51,443 nucleotides of DNA from assembly GCA_045532805.1 (NCBI GenBank), contig JAZSGQ010000073.1, positions 1 through 51,443 on the forward strand. The letters run 5' to 3'. The stretch's first letter is position 1, and each line of letters begins with the position of its first letter. Source of the stretch: Eubacteriales bacterium. GTDB taxonomy: Bacteria; Bacillota; Clostridia; Oscillospirales; CAG-272. Positions 40,499 to 51,443 of the stretch are shown here, piece by piece. The notes beneath the pieces were generated by a model. That model saw only the letters and a program-made list of their open reading frames with translations. It made no database searches and was not told the origin of the DNA. A program made the position numbers and the translations under genes.

Positions 40499-43400
40499 TT
40501 ACTGACTCTGCTTATCAAGCACCAACACAGCGGCGTTCAGTGCCTTGATGGTGTCTTCAAAGGCCTTTGCGTCCACGGCGGCAAATGCGGCGGCCGCGGC
40601 CTCAAGGTCGGGTGCGTTCTCACGCTTGATACCGTTGTTCATCAGTGCGATGGCACCGGCGGCGGCGTTCAGCGTGGAGTCGCTTACGTCCTCGGATTCC
40701 TCCTCAAACGCACTCTGAATCTGACCCAGGCGCTTCTGAAGGAGCGTCTGACCGAGTTCCAGCGTCTCCAGACCAAACTCGGCACGCTTACGCGTGATCT
40801 CCTTGTTGATCGTGGTGATGTAACTTCTCAACTCGTCGATGGGGTTCGCATTGTCGTTATAAGCGGCAAGGAATGCAAAGTTGGTGTAACGGCCGATGAT
40901 ATAGCTGCCGGGATAGTTGGGAATGGAAGCGAGGTTATTGAACTGCTTCTTGAGCTGTGCGTACTCGGCGCGCGTCCAGGGCATCTCCTCCAGTGCGTGG
41001 AGGTTGGCCGTGGAGTGCTTTGCGGAGGGACCGATGATGGCCACCATCTCGTTGGAGTACTTCACCTGGCAATCCTTACCGGAGTGCCACTTCATGAACG
41101 TCCAGGAGTCCTCCTCGTTCTCACAACCGTTCATCATAACGATTGCGGAAACGGCGGAAACCGCCACGTTGTTGATGTTACCCTCTTCATCCATGATACC
41201 GGGCAGGGGGTAGAACTCCCACAGGCCCTTGATCTCGGTAGCAAATACCGTCAGATGGTTATACGTGCCGGTGTAGCTGGCGAAGCCGATGGGCATCTCA
41301 CCGGTACGGAAGCGGTTTGCAAAATCGTAGGAGTAGGGGAAGGAATACATGGTAAAGTAACTGCACATCGTATCGAATGCCTCAAGACCCATATCCGAGT
41401 CGAGGTTGATTCTCATACCGTCGTCGGCGAAGAGTTCGCCGCCCATCTGGTACAGGAAGATCTTGTAGTCGGTGTGCATACCGATCTGCATGTTGTTTGC
41501 CTGAAGCACAGGCACGGCGGCAAGCACGTCGTCCCAGGTCTTGGGGATCTCGATGTCCAGGTCAGCCAGCACGTCGGTGCGGACGAACATCATATTGAAG
41601 CCCTGGGTCTCGGGCAAGCCATAGTAGTGGAAGACGCCGTCGGCATCCTCGATACCAAGCACGATCATGGCCGCTTCATTGAAGTTGGAATTCTCATTCT
41701 TAATGTAGTTGCCATTTGCGTCCTTGATCTTCTGGAAGTTTTCGTCAACCTTATATTCCAGCGCGAAGTCCGCAAAGCCTTCCTGGTCCTCAACGGGAAG
41801 GAGCGCGCCGCGGATCGCGTAGTTGATCACCGTGTCCTCACCGACACCGATGTAAACGTCGGGACCCATGCCCGAAAGCACGGAGGGCAGCAACGTGCCG
41901 CCTGCGACGAGCTGAAGGTTGACACCCACACCATACTGGGGCGTGAAGTCATTGTTGATCAGGTTACGGAGCACCTGGGCCTGGTCACGGCCCGTGGCGA
42001 TCCACACGTCGATGACGTGCTCGCCCTCTTCGTCCTCACCCGTTGCGCCCATACGGTCGTAGTTACGGAAGAAGGACATGAAGAAGCTCTTGATCTCGTG
42101 CCAAACGGAGGCGAAGAAGCCCGCCGTTGCCTGCGGTGCCTCGGTGCCTACGGGCTGTACGGTGATGCAGTCGAGCTGCAAGGGCTGGGTCTTGGCGTCA
42201 CCAAGCCAGGTGCCGAGCGAGCCGATGTAGGACTTGAGCTGATCCAGATACTTGGCGATCTCGTCCTCGTTGGAGCCCATACGCTCCAGCAACCAGCCGA
42301 CCTGCTCCAGCGTTGCCACGTTCGAGCTCTTTTCGCCCGTGATGGCGGCAAGTTCGGCGGCGATGGCGTACATCTCGCGGGACTGAATGATCATATCGAC
42401 CATCGTATCGGGCATGATACGGGAGAAGCCGTAGTCACGGTACTCGTCGGGAGAAGCGCCCGTCAACTTCAGGATCGCGAGGTAGTCGTCGTTGATCGCG
42501 TCAAGGGACGCCTGCACGCGGCGCACGATGTCACCCATCGAACCCACGGTCACTTCCATCTCGATGGTGTAATCCACACCTGCCTCGAAATAGAAGGAGT
42601 AGTAGATCAGATTGCCGTTCTCGTCCGTTTCGCCGTTGTTCATCATCGTGGACTGCCACTTGGAATCGTAGTTGAAGCGCAGTTCGGTCGCCTCGCTGAA
42701 GGGCACGCCGTCATAGTAACCCTTATCGCCCTCGTTCAGGCCGTCACTGTAAATGTACAGTGCGCGGTTGACGTACATACCGTCCAGCACGTTCTGGCGG
42801 TAGCGCGCACCGATGTTATACATACCCGAAGTGCCCACACGGAAGGTGTAGCGCACCCACTGGCCTGCGGTCTGCCACTTCTCACCGCCGATGGTGTTGA
42901 GCACCGTGCGGCTGGTATCGGCGGGCTGGGTAGCCGCATCGGTACGGTCCTCGATGGGGTACACGGTGTTGGTGGAAGTTGCACCCGTGAACTCAGCCTG
43001 AATGGTCAGGGAGTCCTTACCGGGCTCGATGCCCTCGAATGCCTTGAGGTAGTCGTCGTAACTCACGTAACTCTCGTGAGGAATGAGCGCGATGGACTTG
43101 ACAGTCATGGGCTCATTCACGGCCTCCAGAGAAATGCGAACCTCGCCGTTCTCATCGGGCTCGACGGCAAACAGGAAGGATTCCGAGTAGAAGCCGTCGA
43201 TGTCACGCACCTCGTAGGAGCGCCATTCGGGCGCCTGCACCGTGGTGGGACGGAGTTCGTTGTTGTCGATATCGCTGGTGAGGAAGCGCACCGCATAGGT
43301 GTTGACGAAGGCGGTCTTGCCTGCCGTCCATACCTCGGGGATCGCCACCTCCACGCAGTCGTCCTTCTTTACGGCCTCGGTCTCGGTGAAGCCCGCGGCA

Positions 43401-43939
43401 AGGGCGGCGGCGTAGATCTCGTCAACACTCGCATCATCGTCGCTGACCTTGGCGACGGTGTACGTGTTCTTCCAGATCTTGGGAAGCGTGACGTAGCGCG
43501 CTTCTGCGAACGGAATTTTGCCGTTGATCTTCAGAATACGCTCGACCGCGGCGGCTTTCGCCTGGTCGGGATAGTATTCGATCACGATGCTGTACTTGGC
43601 GGCGCTCTTCACGTCCGTAGTGACCCAGGTAACCGTACCCAGATCGGGAGCGTAGACGGAGCCGTCCTCCAGCACCTTCACCTCGGCAGTGGTCGCCTCG
43701 GCGTCGACCTGACTGCCGGGAATGATCACTGCGCTCGTGGCGTCGGGCAGCTCGGCGTGTTCTTCGATGTACACCTCGTAGCTGTCGGCGTTGAGCTGTT
43801 CCTTGATGTCGGCCAGGTTCTTGTCCGTTACGGAACTGTTGTCATCTTCCGCACCGACGCTCAAAACGGTTGAGCCGCCGATGAGAAAACACAGCGCCAT
43901 AAAGAACGCGAGTAACCGTTGGAACTTGGTTTTCTTCAT
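40499..43939 (-). CDS. Very large extracellular solute-binding protein with N-terminal CBM-like domains
   Basis: Signal peptide; INGKIPFAEA, LNTIGG..W, GRDQAQV, YGLPETQ, FRTGEMPI, PGSYIIGR; GGAGGG RBS. Confidence 0.85.
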   Translation of the reverse strand: MKKTKFQRLLAFFMALCFLIGGSTVLSVGAEDDNSSVTDKNLADIKEQLNADSYEVYIEEHAELPDATSAVIIPGSQVDAEATTAEVKVLEDGSVYAPDLGTVTWVTTDVKSAAKYSIVIEYYPDQAKAAAVERILKINGKIPFAEARYVTLPKIWKNTYTVAKVSDDDASVDEIYAAALAAGFTETEAVKKDDCVEVAIPEVWTAGKTAFVNTYAVRFLTSDIDNNELRPTTVQAPEWRSYEVRDIDGFYSESFLFAVEPDENGEVRISLEAVNEPMTVKSIALIPHESYVSYDDYLKAFEGIEPGKDSLTIQAEFTGATSTNTVYPIEDRTDAATQPADTSRTVLNTIGGEKWQTAGQWVRYTFRVGTSGMYNIGARYRQNVLDGMYVNRALYIYSDGLNEGDKGYYDGVPFSEATELRFNYDSKWQSTMMNNGETDENGNLIYYSFYFEAGVDYTIEMEVTVGSMGDIVRRVQASLDAINDDYLAILKLTGASPDEYRDYGFSRIMPDTMVDMIIQSREMYAIAAELAAITGEKSSNVATLEQVGWLLERMGSNEDEIAKYLDQLKSYIGSLGTWLGDAKTQPLQLDCITVQPVGTEAPQATAGFFASVWHEIKSFFMSFFRNYDRMGATGEDEEGEHVIDVWIATGRDQAQVLRNLINNDFTPQYGVGVNLQLVAGGTLLPSVLSGMGPDVYIGVGEDTVINYAIRGALLPVEDQEGFADFALEYKVDENFQKIKDANGNYIKNENSNFNEAAMIVLGIEDADGVFHYYGLPETQGFNMMFVRTDVLADLDIEIPKTWDDVLAAVPVLQANNMQIGMHTDYKIFLYQMGGELFADDGMRINLDSDMGLEAFDTMCSYFTMYSFPYSYDFANRFRTGEMPIGFASYTGTYNHLTVFATEIKGLWEFYPLPGIMDEEGNINNVAVSAVSAIVMMNGCENEEDSWTFMKWHSGKDCQVKYSNEMVAIIGPSAKHSTANLHALEEMPWTRAEYAQLKKQFNNLASIPNYPGSYIIGRYTNFAFLAAYNDNANPIDELRSYITTINKEITRKRAEFGLETLELGQTLLQKRLGQIQSAFEEESEDVSDSTLNAAAGAIALMNNGIKRENAPDLEAAAAAFAAVDAKAFEDTIKALNAAVLVLDKQSQ

Positions 43940-44062
43940 GTTTCCCTCCTGTGTTCCGATTGCAACACGCAATCTTTGGTTTGCACGTTACGTACGCGCT
44001 ACGCATGCACGCGTCGCGCGAACGCTGACGGCTCGCACAGAGCGAGCCCCACGTATGGAAAT

Positions 44063-47666: not shown

Positions 47667-47707
47667 AAAAAACGGCATCACCCTAAAAGGGCGATGCTGT
47701 TTTTTTG
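47667..47707. terminator. Bidirectional terminator downstream of the nuclease gene
   Basis: AAAAAACGGCATCACCCT-AAA-AGGGCGATGCTGTTTTTTTT. Confidence 0.7.
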
Positions 47708-47777: not shown

Positions 47778-48896
47778 TTATTGTGCACCTTTCTTTAAGT
47801 TGCAGTCGCGGCAGAGCATTTGGCAATTTTCAGGGGTAGTATGTCCACCTTTCGACCACGCTTTTATGTGGTCGGCGTGCATATCTTCGAACTCAAATTC
47901 TTCGCCACAGATTGCACACTTATGATTTTGCTTTTCATAAGCCGCAAGGGCATCACGGCGGTCAAAGGCGCGAATAGAAAGTTTCTTTTCTTCTCCGGTC
48001 AGCAGATACTCGTAAATGCCGGATTTCTTCGTTACATCTTCGTCGCCCATAAGTCGCTGAATCTCAAGCTCAAGCTTTTTGGGATCAAGATCTGTGCGCT
48101 TGCCGTGTTCGTTATAATACAAGCCCCAAGGTAAGCCCTTCATTTCTTTGCGCTTCTTCGGGAAGATGGCTTGTACCCAATCAATAACCGAACGGAAATA
48201 ATTCCAAAGTGATACGGCGCTGGGGTCATGCTGATGCTCGGACATATAACCTTCGATGGTTTTACCCTCGGCACTTGCCGCCCACAGTATGGCCGTTTCA
48301 AGATACTCCTGACGAATGCTCGAACCCTTCAAATAATCGCCGGCGAGCGCATCTGCCGCACATCCTGTTTTGGAAAAGTATCTCTTGGCATCGGAAGTCC
48401 ACGAGCCTGCATACACCGCATTCCGCAATTCTTGATCAGTAAGTTCTTCACCTGCTATATTTATGATTTTAAACCATTCCAATTTTTCTGACTCGGTTCC
48501 GTTGCAAACATAGATAAATAGTTCATAATCCAGAATCGCATCACGTTTATCTTTGGGCAGATTTGCAAACAGCATATCATCTACAGAGAAATTACCATCT
48601 ATGTATTCGCAAAGAGAAATCGTGCGCTGCTGACCATCTAAAACTTCGTATCGGGGAGTATCGGGATCGTCCTCATATTCCTCACCACGGTCTACCCAAT
48701 ACATAACATTTAAAGGGAGTCCCTTCATAACAGTACGAATTACTTCGTTGCGCTGTTCATCCTTATATACAAACTCACGCTGATATTTCGGGCGAATATC
48801 TAGTTGTTCATCGTATCCAACAACACCTTCTTCGGCATCATTGAAATAATTGTCTGTGATATCTCGTATAGTTATTTTTCGTTCCTCTATATGCAT
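47778..48896 (-). CDS. DUF262 (GmrS/ParB-like) plus HNH endonuclease
   Basis: RPKYQREFVY, VLDGQQR, FKIIN...QELRNA; C-terminal CAIC...DHIKAWSKGG...NCQMLCRDCN. Confidence 0.88.
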   Translation of the reverse strand: MHIEERKITIRDITDNYFNDAEEGVVGYDEQLDIRPKYQREFVYKDEQRNEVIRTVMKGLPLNVMYWVDRGEEYEDDPDTPRYEVLDGQQRTISLCEYIDGNFSVDDMLFANLPKDKRDAILDYELFIYVCNGTESEKLEWFKIINIAGEELTDQELRNAVYAGSWTSDAKRYFSKTGCAADALAGDYLKGSSIRQEYLETAILWAASAEGKTIEGYMSEHQHDPSAVSLWNYFRSVIDWVQAIFPKKRKEMKGLPWGLYYNEHGKRTDLDPKKLELEIQRLMGDEDVTKKSGIYEYLLTGEEKKLSIRAFDRRDALAAYEKQNHKCAICGEEFEFEDMHADHIKAWSKGGHTTPENCQMLCRDCNLKKGAQ

Positions 48897-50047
48897 TATT
48901 GTTTACCTCCTTTGGGTGGTTCGGGATTTTTGTTGCGAATAAAAATTCTTTTGTAGATCATCGTGGCAACACCATTTTTATAGACGCCAGCAGTGGGGTT
49001 CCCTTCTTTATAAGAGCCTTTCCCACCGGAACTATAATAATCGTCAACAAACTTCTGTGTCAGACCAGGTGTCGTTTTATATTCATCAGGTACTATACCA
49101 TTGTCACTAGTTCCAAGTATTTCGAATTGGTCAGGATTATATTTATCCATGAAAGTTATCGGAACTCCCATAACACCTGCGTAATCAAAAGGAATATCGG
49201 AAACCTTATCAATATTTATTGCATCATAATTGACATATTTGAGATGAAGATACGGATCATATCGTCTAACTAGAATTAATTCTTCGTGTCTCTTTTTAAT
49301 ATCTAGGTTAGTAAACCAACAAATATTGCCAAGAGACCGCCATTTTTGCCCAGCCTCATCCTCCCAATATCGAGTTTCTCGTGCTTCATAATACTCGGGC
49401 ACCATAAATGCCATATCGCCGGACTTGTCTCCGAGCCAAATTTTGTTATCTCGTAATAATGGGAAGATCTCTTTATAGGTAATAGCGTTTTGGTTACCGA
49501 TAACGATGAAACTTTTATTATTATCTTGTAATACTGCTATATATTCACGGAACAAGGAAAAAGGCGGATTTGTAACAATAATGTCAGATTCCTTAAGAAG
49601 ACATAAACATTCTTCAGACCTAAAATCTCCATCACCTTCAAGTTCGGAAAGCTCATTTTCTCCAGTTTTAAAGAGCTCGGCAACATCGAACATATCAATG
49701 CCGCCATCACCTGTTTTATCGTATACTTTCGTCACGATAGCTTTGTATGCCTTGTTGTGTTTGCTTTCTTCTATTCCAGTAACATCAAACAATGAAAGCT
49801 GAGTGTTTGCAACAGGTGATGAGGCATAACAAGTAGCAATTAGTTTCTTTAACCCTAAACGGTTAAAGTTTAAAACGAAGTATTTAAAAAAGTTGCTTTC
49901 AAATGGATCATCACAATTACAAAAGACGGTCTTATCCTTGAAATGTTTTCTATAATGTCGCATTTCTTTTTCCACATCTGTAAGTTGTGTATAAAACTCA
50001 TCTTCTTTAGCAAGTCTGGCTGCCCCTAAGCTTTTATTTCCTGCCAT
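48896..50047 (-). CDS. EcoRI-family adenine-specific DNA methyltransferase
   Basis: DEFYT, CNCDDP, GDGDFRS, DIIVTNPPFS, GVMGVPITF. Confidence 0.9.
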   Translation of the reverse strand: MAGNKSLGAARLAKEDEFYTQLTDVEKEMRHYRKHFKDKTVFCNCDDPFESNFFKYFVLNFNRLGLKKLIATCYASSPVANTQLSLFDVTGIEESKHNKAYKAIVTKVYDKTGDGGIDMFDVAELFKTGENELSELEGDGDFRSEECLCLLKESDIIVTNPPFSLFREYIAVLQDNNKSFIVIGNQNAITYKEIFPLLRDNKIWLGDKSGDMAFMVPEYYEARETRYWEDEAGQKWRSLGNICWFTNLDIKKRHEELILVRRYDPYLHLKYVNYDAINIDKVSDIPFDYAGVMGVPITFMDKYNPDQFEILGTSDNGIVPDEYKTTPGLTQKFVDDYYSSGGKGSYKEGNPTAGVYKNGVATMIYKRIFIRNKNPEPPKGGKQ

Positions 50048-50053
50048 CTCAAA

Positions 50054-50641
50054 TCACCCCACAATTCCGCAGTCTGTTTTTAGTGCTTCAATTTTTTCAA
50101 AAAACTCATATTTATCTTTTGAGCCACGCACTAATGCCAGTATATCGTCCACTTTCCTGTCATATTGGTTTGTTGTGAAGAAGTAGTACAAAATATTATT
50201 TAGATCGGCACTTAAGTCATTCAATTCGTAATAATTGATGTAAAATGCCTTTTTAGCATAATTCGTTATTCTTCTGACATCAGAGATATATGGCTTGGTA
50301 ATAGCGTTATGTTTGTTTCTTGCAATCCCACCAATTTTAGAAAACACCTTGTCTACAGATTCTTCTGTGTATTTCCCATCGTCATCTTTAACTAAATACT
50401 GTGACAAAGCAGCCTCAATGCTTTCGCATAATATATCAAAGCCGAATTCTCGTATCCATTTTTTACAATTAAGAATGCCAGTTTCGCTAAATGAATATCC
50501 AGTTATAGAAATTAAGTCTTGAATTTTTTCAAGCATTTCATCTAAAGTCATTTTATATGATGTTACTGTTTGCTTTGAACCACAAAAGTTGCAGAACACA
50601 GATCCATCAGCAATGTCTTTTTTACAAGCAATACATTCCAT
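50054..50641 (-). CDS. Zinc-ribbon-containing hypothetical protein
   Basis: CIAC-X10-CNFC at the N-terminus; AAGGAG RBS. Confidence 0.75.
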   Translation of the reverse strand: MECIACKKDIADGSVFCNFCGSKQTVTSYKMTLDEMLEKIQDLISITGYSFSETGILNCKKWIREFGFDILCESIEAALSQYLVKDDDGKYTEESVDKVFSKIGGIARNKHNAITKPYISDVRRITNYAKKAFYINYYELNDLSADLNNILYYFFTTNQYDRKVDDILALVRGSKDKYEFFEKIEALKTDCGIVG

Positions 50642-50659: not shown

Positions 50660-51265
50660 TCACAATTCCTCCGTCTTAAAAGTCGTATAACCCTCATAGT
50701 AGTAGCTGTGGTCGATGCCTTTCATATAGACCTCGCGGCTATGGATATTGTCGGTCAGGGCGTTTTTCAGGATATGCTTGATCTCGATATCCTTAATGGG
50801 ACTGCGTTCCATTGCAAGCAGATAGTCCTCTTTATCCACCTTGCTCCAATCGACAACCCTGCCGATCTCCTTCTTAAAGATGCAATCCAGCCAGGTGCGT
50901 GTGCTTCTGCCGTTGCCCTCACGGAAGGGGTGGGCGATATTCATTTCCACGTACTTCTCCACGATCTCGTCAAAAGTGGACTGGGGCATTTTGTCAATAT
51001 TAGCAAGAGCCGCTTCAAGGTACATCAAGGGAGCGAAACGGAAGTTGCCTTTAGAAATATTTACGGTTCTGAGTTTTCCAGCAAAGTCGTAGATCTCATC
51101 AAAGAGAAACTTGTGAATTGCCTTGAGAGCAGAGAATTTTCCTGCTTCCAGTTTATCAAGCATACCGTTTTCAAAAAGTTCAAGAGCCTTTTTCTTGCTG
51201 ATGCGTTCTTCCTCACGGGCAAGGTCTGCGGAACTTGTAAGCCCCAATTTATTTTCAAGTGCCAT
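50660..51265 (-). CDS. fic: Fic-domain AMP transferase, class III (C-terminal auto-inhibitory helix)
   Basis: HPFREGNGRSTR catalytic motif; SYYYEG inhibitory motif at the C-terminus. Confidence 0.9.
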   Translation of the reverse strand: MALENKLGLTSSADLAREEERISKKKALELFENGMLDKLEAGKFSALKAIHKFLFDEIYDFAGKLRTVNISKGNFRFAPLMYLEAALANIDKMPQSTFDEIVEKYVEMNIAHPFREGNGRSTRTWLDCIFKKEIGRVVDWSKVDKEDYLLAMERSPIKDIEIKHILKNALTDNIHSREVYMKGIDHSYYYEGYTTFKTEEL

Positions 51266-51285: not shown

Positions 51286-51443
51286 TTACTTATCAGCCGC
51301 AACGCCGGATTTCATCCAAGCATCAACTTCGCTGATTTTAAATTTCCACAGTCTGCCGATCTTTGCGGCGGGCATATTGCGACGTTCAATCCAGTCGAGA
51401 ACAGTATCACGGCTAACGCCCAAATATTCCATTATTTCTTTCA
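51286..51443 (-). CDS. Excisionase-like helix-turn-helix DNA-binding protein (5' end outside window; absent from ORF track)
   Basis: Hand translation: KEIMEYLGVSRDTVLDWIERRNMPAAKIGRLWKFKISEVDAWMKSGVAADK*. Confidence 0.8.
   Translation of the reverse strand, partial: KEIMEYLGVSRDTVLDWIERRNMPAAKIGRLWKFKISEVDAWMKSGVAADK

Follow-up and report, generated by a model that had tools for sequence, protein, structure and literature searches.

The 51,443-nucleotide (nt) window analyzed here (contig JAZSGQ010000073.1 of a Eubacteriales bacterium, assembly GCA_045532805.1, positions 1 to 51,443) carries near its end a gene for an EcoRI-family DNA methyltransferase (hereafter methylase), followed by a gene for a nuclease with DUF262 and HNH domains. 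The pair is probably a new specificity allele of the known, little-studied BanLI family of restriction-modification (R-M) systems. Among the relatives analyzed, two segments of the methylase are exchanged beside a nearly constant nuclease, and the methylase is likely the specificity subunit of the pair. We propose, with a probability of about 0.58, that it directs a generic nuclease gated by nucleotides, much as in type III systems except for the missing helicase. The features of the locus are as follows (aa, amino acids):

50047..48896, minus strand: EcoRI-family N6-adenine DNA methyltransferase, 383 aa (PF13651; PADLOC MTase_II PDLC03297)
48896..47778, minus strand: nuclease with a DUF262 (ParB/Srx-fold) domain, a helical middle and a zinc HNH domain, 372 aa (Pfam, PADLOC)
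49319..49429, minus strand: variable block A of the methylase, aa 207-243, at the tip of a predicted long beta-hairpin, type A2 (alignment, model)
48950..49114, minus strand: variable block B of the methylase, aa 312-366, type B8 (alignment)
48898-48894, minus strand: TAATG stop-start overlap, the methylase TAA and the nuclease ATG sharing base 48896
47675..47697, minus strand: terminator-like hairpin with T tail, 80 nt past the nuclease stop (consensus match only)

A BanLI-type pair with coupled genes

The methylase and nuclease genes overlap by one base (48896), as a sequence-only reading of the window had stated. An overlap or a gap of at most 15 nt was found in 123 of the 129 relatives with a measurable junction, and the coupling of the two genes is therefore not due to chance; translational coupling at the TAATG is probable. 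Contigs of two further DNA runs from separate studies (X1 and X4) bridge the junction with the same single-methylase layout, which is thus not an assembly artefact. RNA contigs of run X6 cover both genes, a coverage that cannot show transcription. Terminator-like hairpins were no more frequent in the region than in shuffles (2 found, 2.9 expected), and the one listed above is likely the operon end. Promoter matches were about as frequent as expected by chance (10, with 10.9 expected).

BanLI was described from Bifidobacterium animalis subsp. lactis (O'Connell Motherway et al. 2014; PMC3990576). According to the available portion of that report, M.BanLI methylates one strand of RTC(m6A)GG at 1576 of 1576 sites (m6A, N6-methyladenine), the cloned pair lowers the plating of P1vir about 10-fold, which is weak restriction, and pre-methylation by M.BanLI raises transformation 1.8-fold; its authors concluded that the system is an incomplete type IIS system. 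The term 'HNH' occurs 0 times in that text, where the nuclease is only likened to type II restriction subunits. Both window proteins are 60% identical to the proteins of locus L196, which carries the published banLI primer sites: three of the four sites tested match exactly, and the fourth does not lie in the stretch compared. The L196 nuclease has a computed mass of 43.55 kDa, compared with 43.5 kDa in PMC3990576, and the L196 genome belongs to the same genus as the Bifidobacterium locus L057. PADLOC classifies the window pair as type II R-M, its separate methylase and nuclease genes both matching type II profiles. The REase_II profile concerned (372 positions) scores 905 bits against the L196 nuclease over all of its positions (1-372) and looks as if it was built on the nuclease of the BanLI locus. 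The window methylase lies directly upstream of a full-length R.BanLI homolog, which places the two genes among BanLI-type pairs.

The suggestion that the pair is an uncharacterised defence system must be given up in view of the 60% identity of both proteins to BanLI and the full-length REase_II profile of PADLOC. A characterised close homolog had been named as an argument against that suggestion, and BanLI is such a homolog in part: its methylation and restriction are described, and no description of the nuclease family or its mechanism was found in the literature searched, REBASE and most subscription journals lying outside this coverage. The available parts of PMC4619093, PMC10952713, PMC12707154, PMC10305163, PMC4978471, PMC12839542, PMC4738411, PMC12915315, PMC4752239 and bioRxiv 10.1101/2023.12.13.571470 hold no description of the pair, and the supplements of Blow et al. 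contain neither RTCAGG nor any of four genera taken from the analyzed loci and matches. What held up of the sequence-only reading is its core, an atypical R-M pair in which methylation protects the DNA, the reverse of GmrSD logic. By analogy with BanLI this is the most likely interpretation, with weak support from the transformation gain (1.8-fold) and the reduced P1vir plating (~10-fold).

The family is widespread. All 8000 of 8000 scored candidates were family matches, as were 358 of 410 pattern matches in genomes and 506 of 594 in metagenomes, and members were found on 50 plasmid records and on viral contigs. The analysis below covers the 80 best loci of each scan (genomes and metagenomes), together with 16 from viruses and a few from plasmids and phages. 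They were ranked by nuclease match, so that broken nucleases are under-sampled.

A variable methylase beside a constant nuclease

In 151 of 160 nuclease loci the gene directly upstream encodes a methylase (six have too little flank and three are different), and a nuclease match follows the methylase in 16 of 16 viral methylase loci, being broken in two. Measured in blocks of 20 residues, conservation of the nuclease stays at 0.80-0.96, save for one short indel loop (0.59). The methylase is largely conserved over its N-terminal 200 residues, and its conservation then falls to 0.43 at aa 221-240 and to 0.22-0.26 at aa 321-360. Both variable blocks could be extracted from 162 of the 172 methylases. 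With types defined at 60% identity they comprise 27 A types, 54 B types and 71 combinations, the B count being approximate as the extraction pattern cut a few blocks short. The window methylase is A2+B8, M.BanLI combines A2 with another B, and M.EcoRI is A4+B52; block B of the window is unrelated to the B blocks of both BanLI and M.EcoRI.

Among 94 non-redundant single-methylase loci, 80 pairs have nucleases at least 98% identical, and 47 of these differ in a block, 19 of them in both. A cluster of 13 near-identical nucleases is combined with eight block combinations, and a cluster of 11 with seven. Between loci L107 and L108 the nuclease differs at only three residues (2, 4 and 8) and the methylase in both blocks. 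In a quickly built tree of the nucleases, 39 changes of A type are required (minimum 18, shuffled mean 46.1), so that the types are strongly reshuffled yet still grouped to some extent by kinship.

EcoRI-family nucleases read DNA themselves, and the methylases beside them served as a control. Block A of these methylases is 74-95% identical to that of M.EcoRI (6/6) and block B 80-90% (5/5), the whole unsplit methylases being 66-83% identical. In this control L210 gave no block extraction, L211 and L212 were left out for their other methylase types, and the nuclease identities of L209 and L213 are unreliable owing to start choice and a split gene. M.EcoRI recognizes the palindrome GAATTC, and the two members of known site, M.EcoRI (GAATTC) and M.BanLI (RTCAGG), differ in their blocks as well as in their sites. 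As the nuclease is near-constant while the blocks swap, and as the blocks are frozen beside EcoRI nucleases, blocks A and B probably set the recognition site, and the DUF262-HNH nuclease would have no matching specificity of its own. Co-variation of the nuclease with the recognition parts of its methylase, as expected of orthodox type II systems, was not observed in this comparison. The A2 block shared with M.BanLI would predict a target sharing part of RTCAGG, and since block B is unrelated to that of BanLI, the site of the window methylase is probably a different one.

In L211 and L212 the EcoRI-family nucleases stand beside methylases annotated as other types; this nuclease and the PF13651 methylase are thus also found separately.

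Domains and predicted structures

The methylase matches Pfam PF13651 (EcoRI_methylase) with an E-value of 5.5e-143, contains the motifs DEFYT16, NCDD44, GDGDF138 and NPPF160, and is 48% identical to M.EcoRI over aa 2-311. PDB sequence searches returned no solved relative. The nearest folds to its model (predicted local distance difference test, pLDDT, 88.2) include class I S-adenosylmethionine-dependent methylases, none of them at E <= 0.001.

In the nuclease, Pfam matches GmrSD_N (DUF262; E 4.1e-19, aa 33-162) and HNH (E 8e-15, aa 327-371), and the PADLOC profile REase_II PDLC03418 covers aa 1-370 (E 3.6e-153). No match to GmrSD_C (DUF1524, PF07510) was obtained at E <= 0.01, the C-terminal match being PF01844 HNH instead; the same Pfam library detects PF07510 in the true GmrSD of locus L003. 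The motifs are Y38-Q39-R40, D87GQQR91, F142xxxN146, C327xxC330, D342H343, N357, C362xxC365 and N366. Residues Q39, R40, DGQQR, F142, N146, C327, C330, D342, H343, N357, C362 and N366 do not vary among 38 aligned relatives, whereas Y38 and the fourth zinc cysteine, C365, do. The QR, DGQQR, FxxxN and Cys4 HNH motifs read earlier from the sequence are indeed intact, with the qualification that C365 is not invariant in relatives.

The nuclease model (pLDDT 88.0) consists of a ParB/Srx-type N-terminal domain, a helical middle and the HNH domain. Its best structural match is BrxU (7p9k; Z 8.1, root mean square deviation (rmsd) 3.6, 120 aligned residues), confined to the N-terminal domain, to which the N-terminal domain of SspE also aligns (Z 6.6, rmsd 3.7, 134 aligned). 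The CTP hydrolases ParB and Noc are among the Foldseek matches with weak E-values. No clear structural match was found for the helical middle, and the HNH domain is McrA/IscB-like (Z 7.5, rmsd 2.1-2.4, 57-61 aligned). PDB sequence searches with the nuclease gave matches to the HNH domain only, plus BrxU at E 0.031 when a profile was used. Fold and motif suggest that the nuclease is regulated by nucleoside triphosphates (NTPs).

These similarities bear on the possibility, also raised in the sequence-only reading, that the nuclease works as a sensor in the manner of SspE, reading host m6A, being stimulated as an NTPase and nicking unmarked DNA with no contact to the methylase. By motif, the sensing residues Y30, Q31 and R32 of SspE, as given in the available part of PMC9646914, appear equivalent to Y38-Q39-R40, and the N-terminal domains resemble each other as stated (Z 6.6, rmsd 3.7). 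The QR pair is, however, a general DUF262 motif and no sign of sensing, according to the portion of PMC4619093 available. SspE moreover senses one fixed context, whereas here the site apparently changes under a near-identical nuclease, and a sensor of m6A regardless of context gives no reason for the rapid diversification of the blocks. We consider this explanation unlikely.

Broken and phase-variable methylases

Among the 140 loci with more than 1300 bases upstream, both genes are intact in 127. An intact nuclease stands beside a stopped, frameshifted, interrupted or truncated methylase in nine, the reverse holds in two, and two were set aside. L048 and L172 were not counted among the broken-methylase loci, since the methylase runs off the contig in the one and the start of the nuclease is disrupted in the other. 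The imbalance of nine to two is hard to square with an orthodox type II system.

At L061:5500-5551 a (GACA)13 tract lies in block B and is followed by three different endings in three frames and then by a single nuclease, the product being 415, 543 or 481 aa long for 11, 12 or 13 repeats. The same design is seen in L059:1-76 and L053:1-24, where the contigs begin inside the tract. From its layout, the GACA tract is likely a three-way phase-variable specificity switch. In L136 (3345-3360) an AG run lies at the methylase frameshift beside an intact nuclease, a possible on/off phase switch.

Such loci argue against a guard or toxin-antitoxin arrangement, in which the methylase would restrain a non-specific nuclease and phage inhibition of the methylase would free the nuclease and kill the cell. 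Translational coupling, the weak support for a complex (see below) and the weak classical restriction by BanLI are in keeping with this scheme, but an intact nuclease beside a broken or truncated methylase (9/140 loci) should then be lethal, and frame switches inside the methylase (the AG run of L136 and the GACA run of L061) do not suit it. It seems to us rather improbable.

The nine loci are also those expected if the nuclease is an independent type IV enzyme that, in the manner of GmrSD or BrxU, attacks modified phage DNA and is simply inherited alongside the methylase. BrxU is its nearest structure, and the nuclease neither tracks the methylase blocks nor disappears when the methylase is broken. 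This explanation is nevertheless unlikely, as the linkage is near-obligate and overlapping, a fast-diversifying methylase would be left with no partner, and the C-terminus matches PF01844 HNH and not GmrSD_C (E <= 0.01). Methylation by M.BanLI, furthermore, aided transformation, though only 1.8-fold, and one fusion and a weak complex prediction link the two proteins.

Tandem methylases, fusions and the predicted complex

One methylase is found in 120 of the 160 loci and two in 18. The partners in tandem loci (A/B types) vary, comprising 2/8+1/2, 2/15+1/2, 2/8+1/1, 3/5+1/2 and 2/15+4/30, and 2/8, 2/15, 3/5 and 1/1 are also found alone in loci with ample flank; the partners are therefore not fixed top- and bottom-strand pairs. 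The closest relatives of the window locus mostly have an A2+B8 or A2+B15 gene followed by a second methylase. The window methylase is similar to the first tandem copy over its length and to the second in the last codons alone, and an X6 contig 99% identical to it runs on into a second methylase. From these comparisons, tandem methylase arrays appear to gain and lose members under one nuclease.

An orthodox type II system, or the incomplete type IIS system envisaged by the BanLI authors, would require a nuclease with its own matching specificity and a second methylase for the other strand. The PADLOC labels are in line with this, as are the two methylases in 18 of 160 loci and in most of the closest relatives. 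Nucleases three to four residues apart are, however, paired with unrelated blocks, the tandem partners vary and several of them also occur alone, and 120 of 160 loci have a single methylase; we regard this reading as very improbable.

One clean in-frame methylase-nuclease fusion, P0123, was identified. P0122 was not accepted as a second one, since the tail of its methylase seems to be frameshifted. In L082:2989-4217, from Mycobacterium phage Marchy, a methylase of the family with an A1-like block is followed by a 47-residue nuclease stub; similar methylases occur in Hami1 and Norz, and the phage gene has possibly been kept as protection against restriction.

The complex predicted for the methylase and the nuclease scored 0.47 and the best of three controls 0.00, a result in the tool's class of weak support. 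In its calibration, 116 of 157 solved complexes passed, as did 2 of 215 mismatches; passes at scores of <=0.60 came from only 18 of the 157 and from both mismatches. The runs agree in at least 81% of contacts, with a pLDDT of at least 83 for the partners.

Proposed mechanism

In the mechanism we propose, the methylase would recognize an asymmetric site through blocks A and B and mark one strand. At an unmethylated site it would dock the nuclease, which would bring no target specificity of its own, and nucleotide binding or hydrolysis at DGQQR would gate the HNH domain, as in BrxU and SspE. Marking of one strand raises the question of replication, which type III systems solve by requiring two inverted unmarked sites (available part of PMC12707154). 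Newly replicated host DNA may be spared here by a similar need for two inverted unmethylated sites, the ParB-fold domain being the only candidate for communication between them. If the methylase guides the nuclease in this way, BanLI would be complete and not crippled.

A number of observations weigh against this proposal. The two-site step is drawn from the likeness to type III systems, and no biochemistry of the nuclease of any family member was found in the searchable literature. A constant nuclease that tolerates loss of the methylase would fit an independent type IV enzyme equally well, and BanLI restricts only weakly (PMC3990576). The assignment of specificity to the blocks, itself a matter of sequence comparison, has as its basis two known sites and a control of six loci, a small number. 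Block types are still clustered on the nuclease tree (0 of 200 shuffles were as low), and the locus pairs are kin and not independent. Some of the broken methylases lie in low-coverage contigs (L148 and L157), where assembly error is possible, and ranking by nuclease match under-samples broken nucleases. Only one clean fusion was found among 4606 longer candidates, and, according to the tool, complex predictions that pass as weakly as this one are wrong in more cases than not, save where there was prior reason to expect the complex.

A more far-reaching version, which we offer tentatively and consider doubtful, is that the family forms an unrecognised class of helicase-less, type III-like R-M systems. 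Its methylase, with two exchangeable recognition blocks, would load a ParB-like nuclease clamp gated by nucleotides, which would slide and would cleave once it encountered a second clamp coming from an unmethylated site of opposite orientation. Exchange of two segments of 20-70 residues would then reprogram the specificity, some strains would flip among three specificities by means of one slippery repeat, and M.EcoRI would be one allele that a stand-alone nuclease has captured and frozen.

Genomic context

Upstream of the methylase, the remainder of the contig contains three genes:

50054..50641, minus strand: 195-aa protein with an N-terminal double zinc ribbon (weak PF12773 below cut-off, no other family match)
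50660..51265, minus strand: NmFic-type adenylyltransferase (PADLOC PDC-S04; Pfam, PADLOC)
51286..51443, minus strand: excisionase-type HTH_17 gene, cut at the contig end (PF12728, E 5.8e-14)

The zinc-ribbon gene lies 6 nt upstream of the methylase and is present in 2 of 80 genome loci, and the Fic gene in 6 of 80, one of the six being partial. As parts of the system both were rejected on these counts; they are optional passengers. At L001:2791-3392, in a near-identical relative (96% at the DNA level) that has the same peptidase next to it, a gene for a four-helix bundle (23S_rRNA_IVP, PF05635) takes the place of the Fic gene, which is truncated at its 5' end.

The G+C content is 36-45% across 47-51 kb, compared with 50-65% in the first 45 kb of the window. 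A search of 60 related genomes, of which many are incomplete, gave no full-length copy of the cassette, and PF13651 occurs in 3 of 401 genomes of the phylum, this genome included. Given its low G+C content and its rarity among related genomes, the cassette is patchy in its distribution and most likely horizontally acquired. The source genome (G000), which is 92% complete and whose contig ends 1.4 kb upstream, holds one copy of the methylase.

Several other loci carry neighbours of note. In L003 (900-2747) a true fused GmrSD (PF03235 + PF07510) stands just upstream of a two-methylase BanLI-type cassette, giving a stacked defence island. An AAA_21 ATPase and a 215-aa partner, a pair of possible defence type, lie downstream of the nuclease in L024:6200-7998. 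On an Enterococcus faecium plasmid (L084:1-6355), erm(A) and optrA are located about 1.5 kb and 3.7 kb, respectively, from a cassette whose A4 block is EcoRI-like. Elsewhere in the window (40499-43972, minus strand) a 1157-aa extracellular solute-binding-like protein is, judged by translation, the first in an operon for an ATP-binding cassette (ABC) sugar transporter.

Comparison with known systems

The window pair shares gene order and protein families with BanLI, and both methylases have block A of type A2, whereas their B blocks are unrelated. With the EcoRI R-M system only the methylase family is shared. The A4 block of M.EcoRI also occurs beside DUF262-HNH nucleases (L046 and L084), but the window nuclease is unrelated to R.EcoRI, which has a different PADLOC profile, and the blocks are frozen where R.EcoRI is the partner. 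The two methylases of a type IIS system, one per strand, were not found, there being a single copy in G000 and one in 120 of 160 relatives.

GmrSD/BrxU and SspE have in common with the window nuclease the N-terminal DUF262 fold, the QR, DGQQR and FxxxN motifs and a C-terminal His-Me nuclease. The window nuclease differs from GmrSD and BrxU in its length (372 aa, compared with 587 for BrxU), its zinc McrA-type HNH domain in place of GmrSD_C, and its near-obligate cognate methylase. As for SspABCD-SspE, no phosphorothioation genes were among the flanking genes scanned, and the genome was not searched for ssp or dnd genes.

Type III systems (EcoP15I) and the split type IIG-like systems in the available part of Blow et al. 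(2016; PMC4752239) would resemble the window family in their working, with one recognition module in the methylase, marking of one strand of an asymmetric site and phase-variable methylase genes. The pair itself, in which Pfam shows GmrSD_N, HNH-type families and PF13651, contains no type III Res or ResIII superfamily 2 (SF2) helicase/ATPase and no MmeI- or Mod-family methylase; its nuclease is of the HNH type, and the ParB/Srx domain is the only candidate for NTP binding. Judged by its sequences, the pair thus appears to fall outside orthodox type II, type IIS, type III and GmrSD, and in its proposed working it would be most like type III or split type IIG.

The locus is one more copy of a common cassette, and it is the family that deserves attention, having been filed as plain type II apparently on the strength of one member that its describers took to be broken. 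If the methylase does steer the nuclease, the family would represent a distinct R-M design with a single recognition element, in which a ParB-fold switch replaces the helicase. It would also amount to a naturally occurring collection of m6A specificities in modular form, with 71 combinations of blocks observed, and M.EcoRI would be one allele of this collection.

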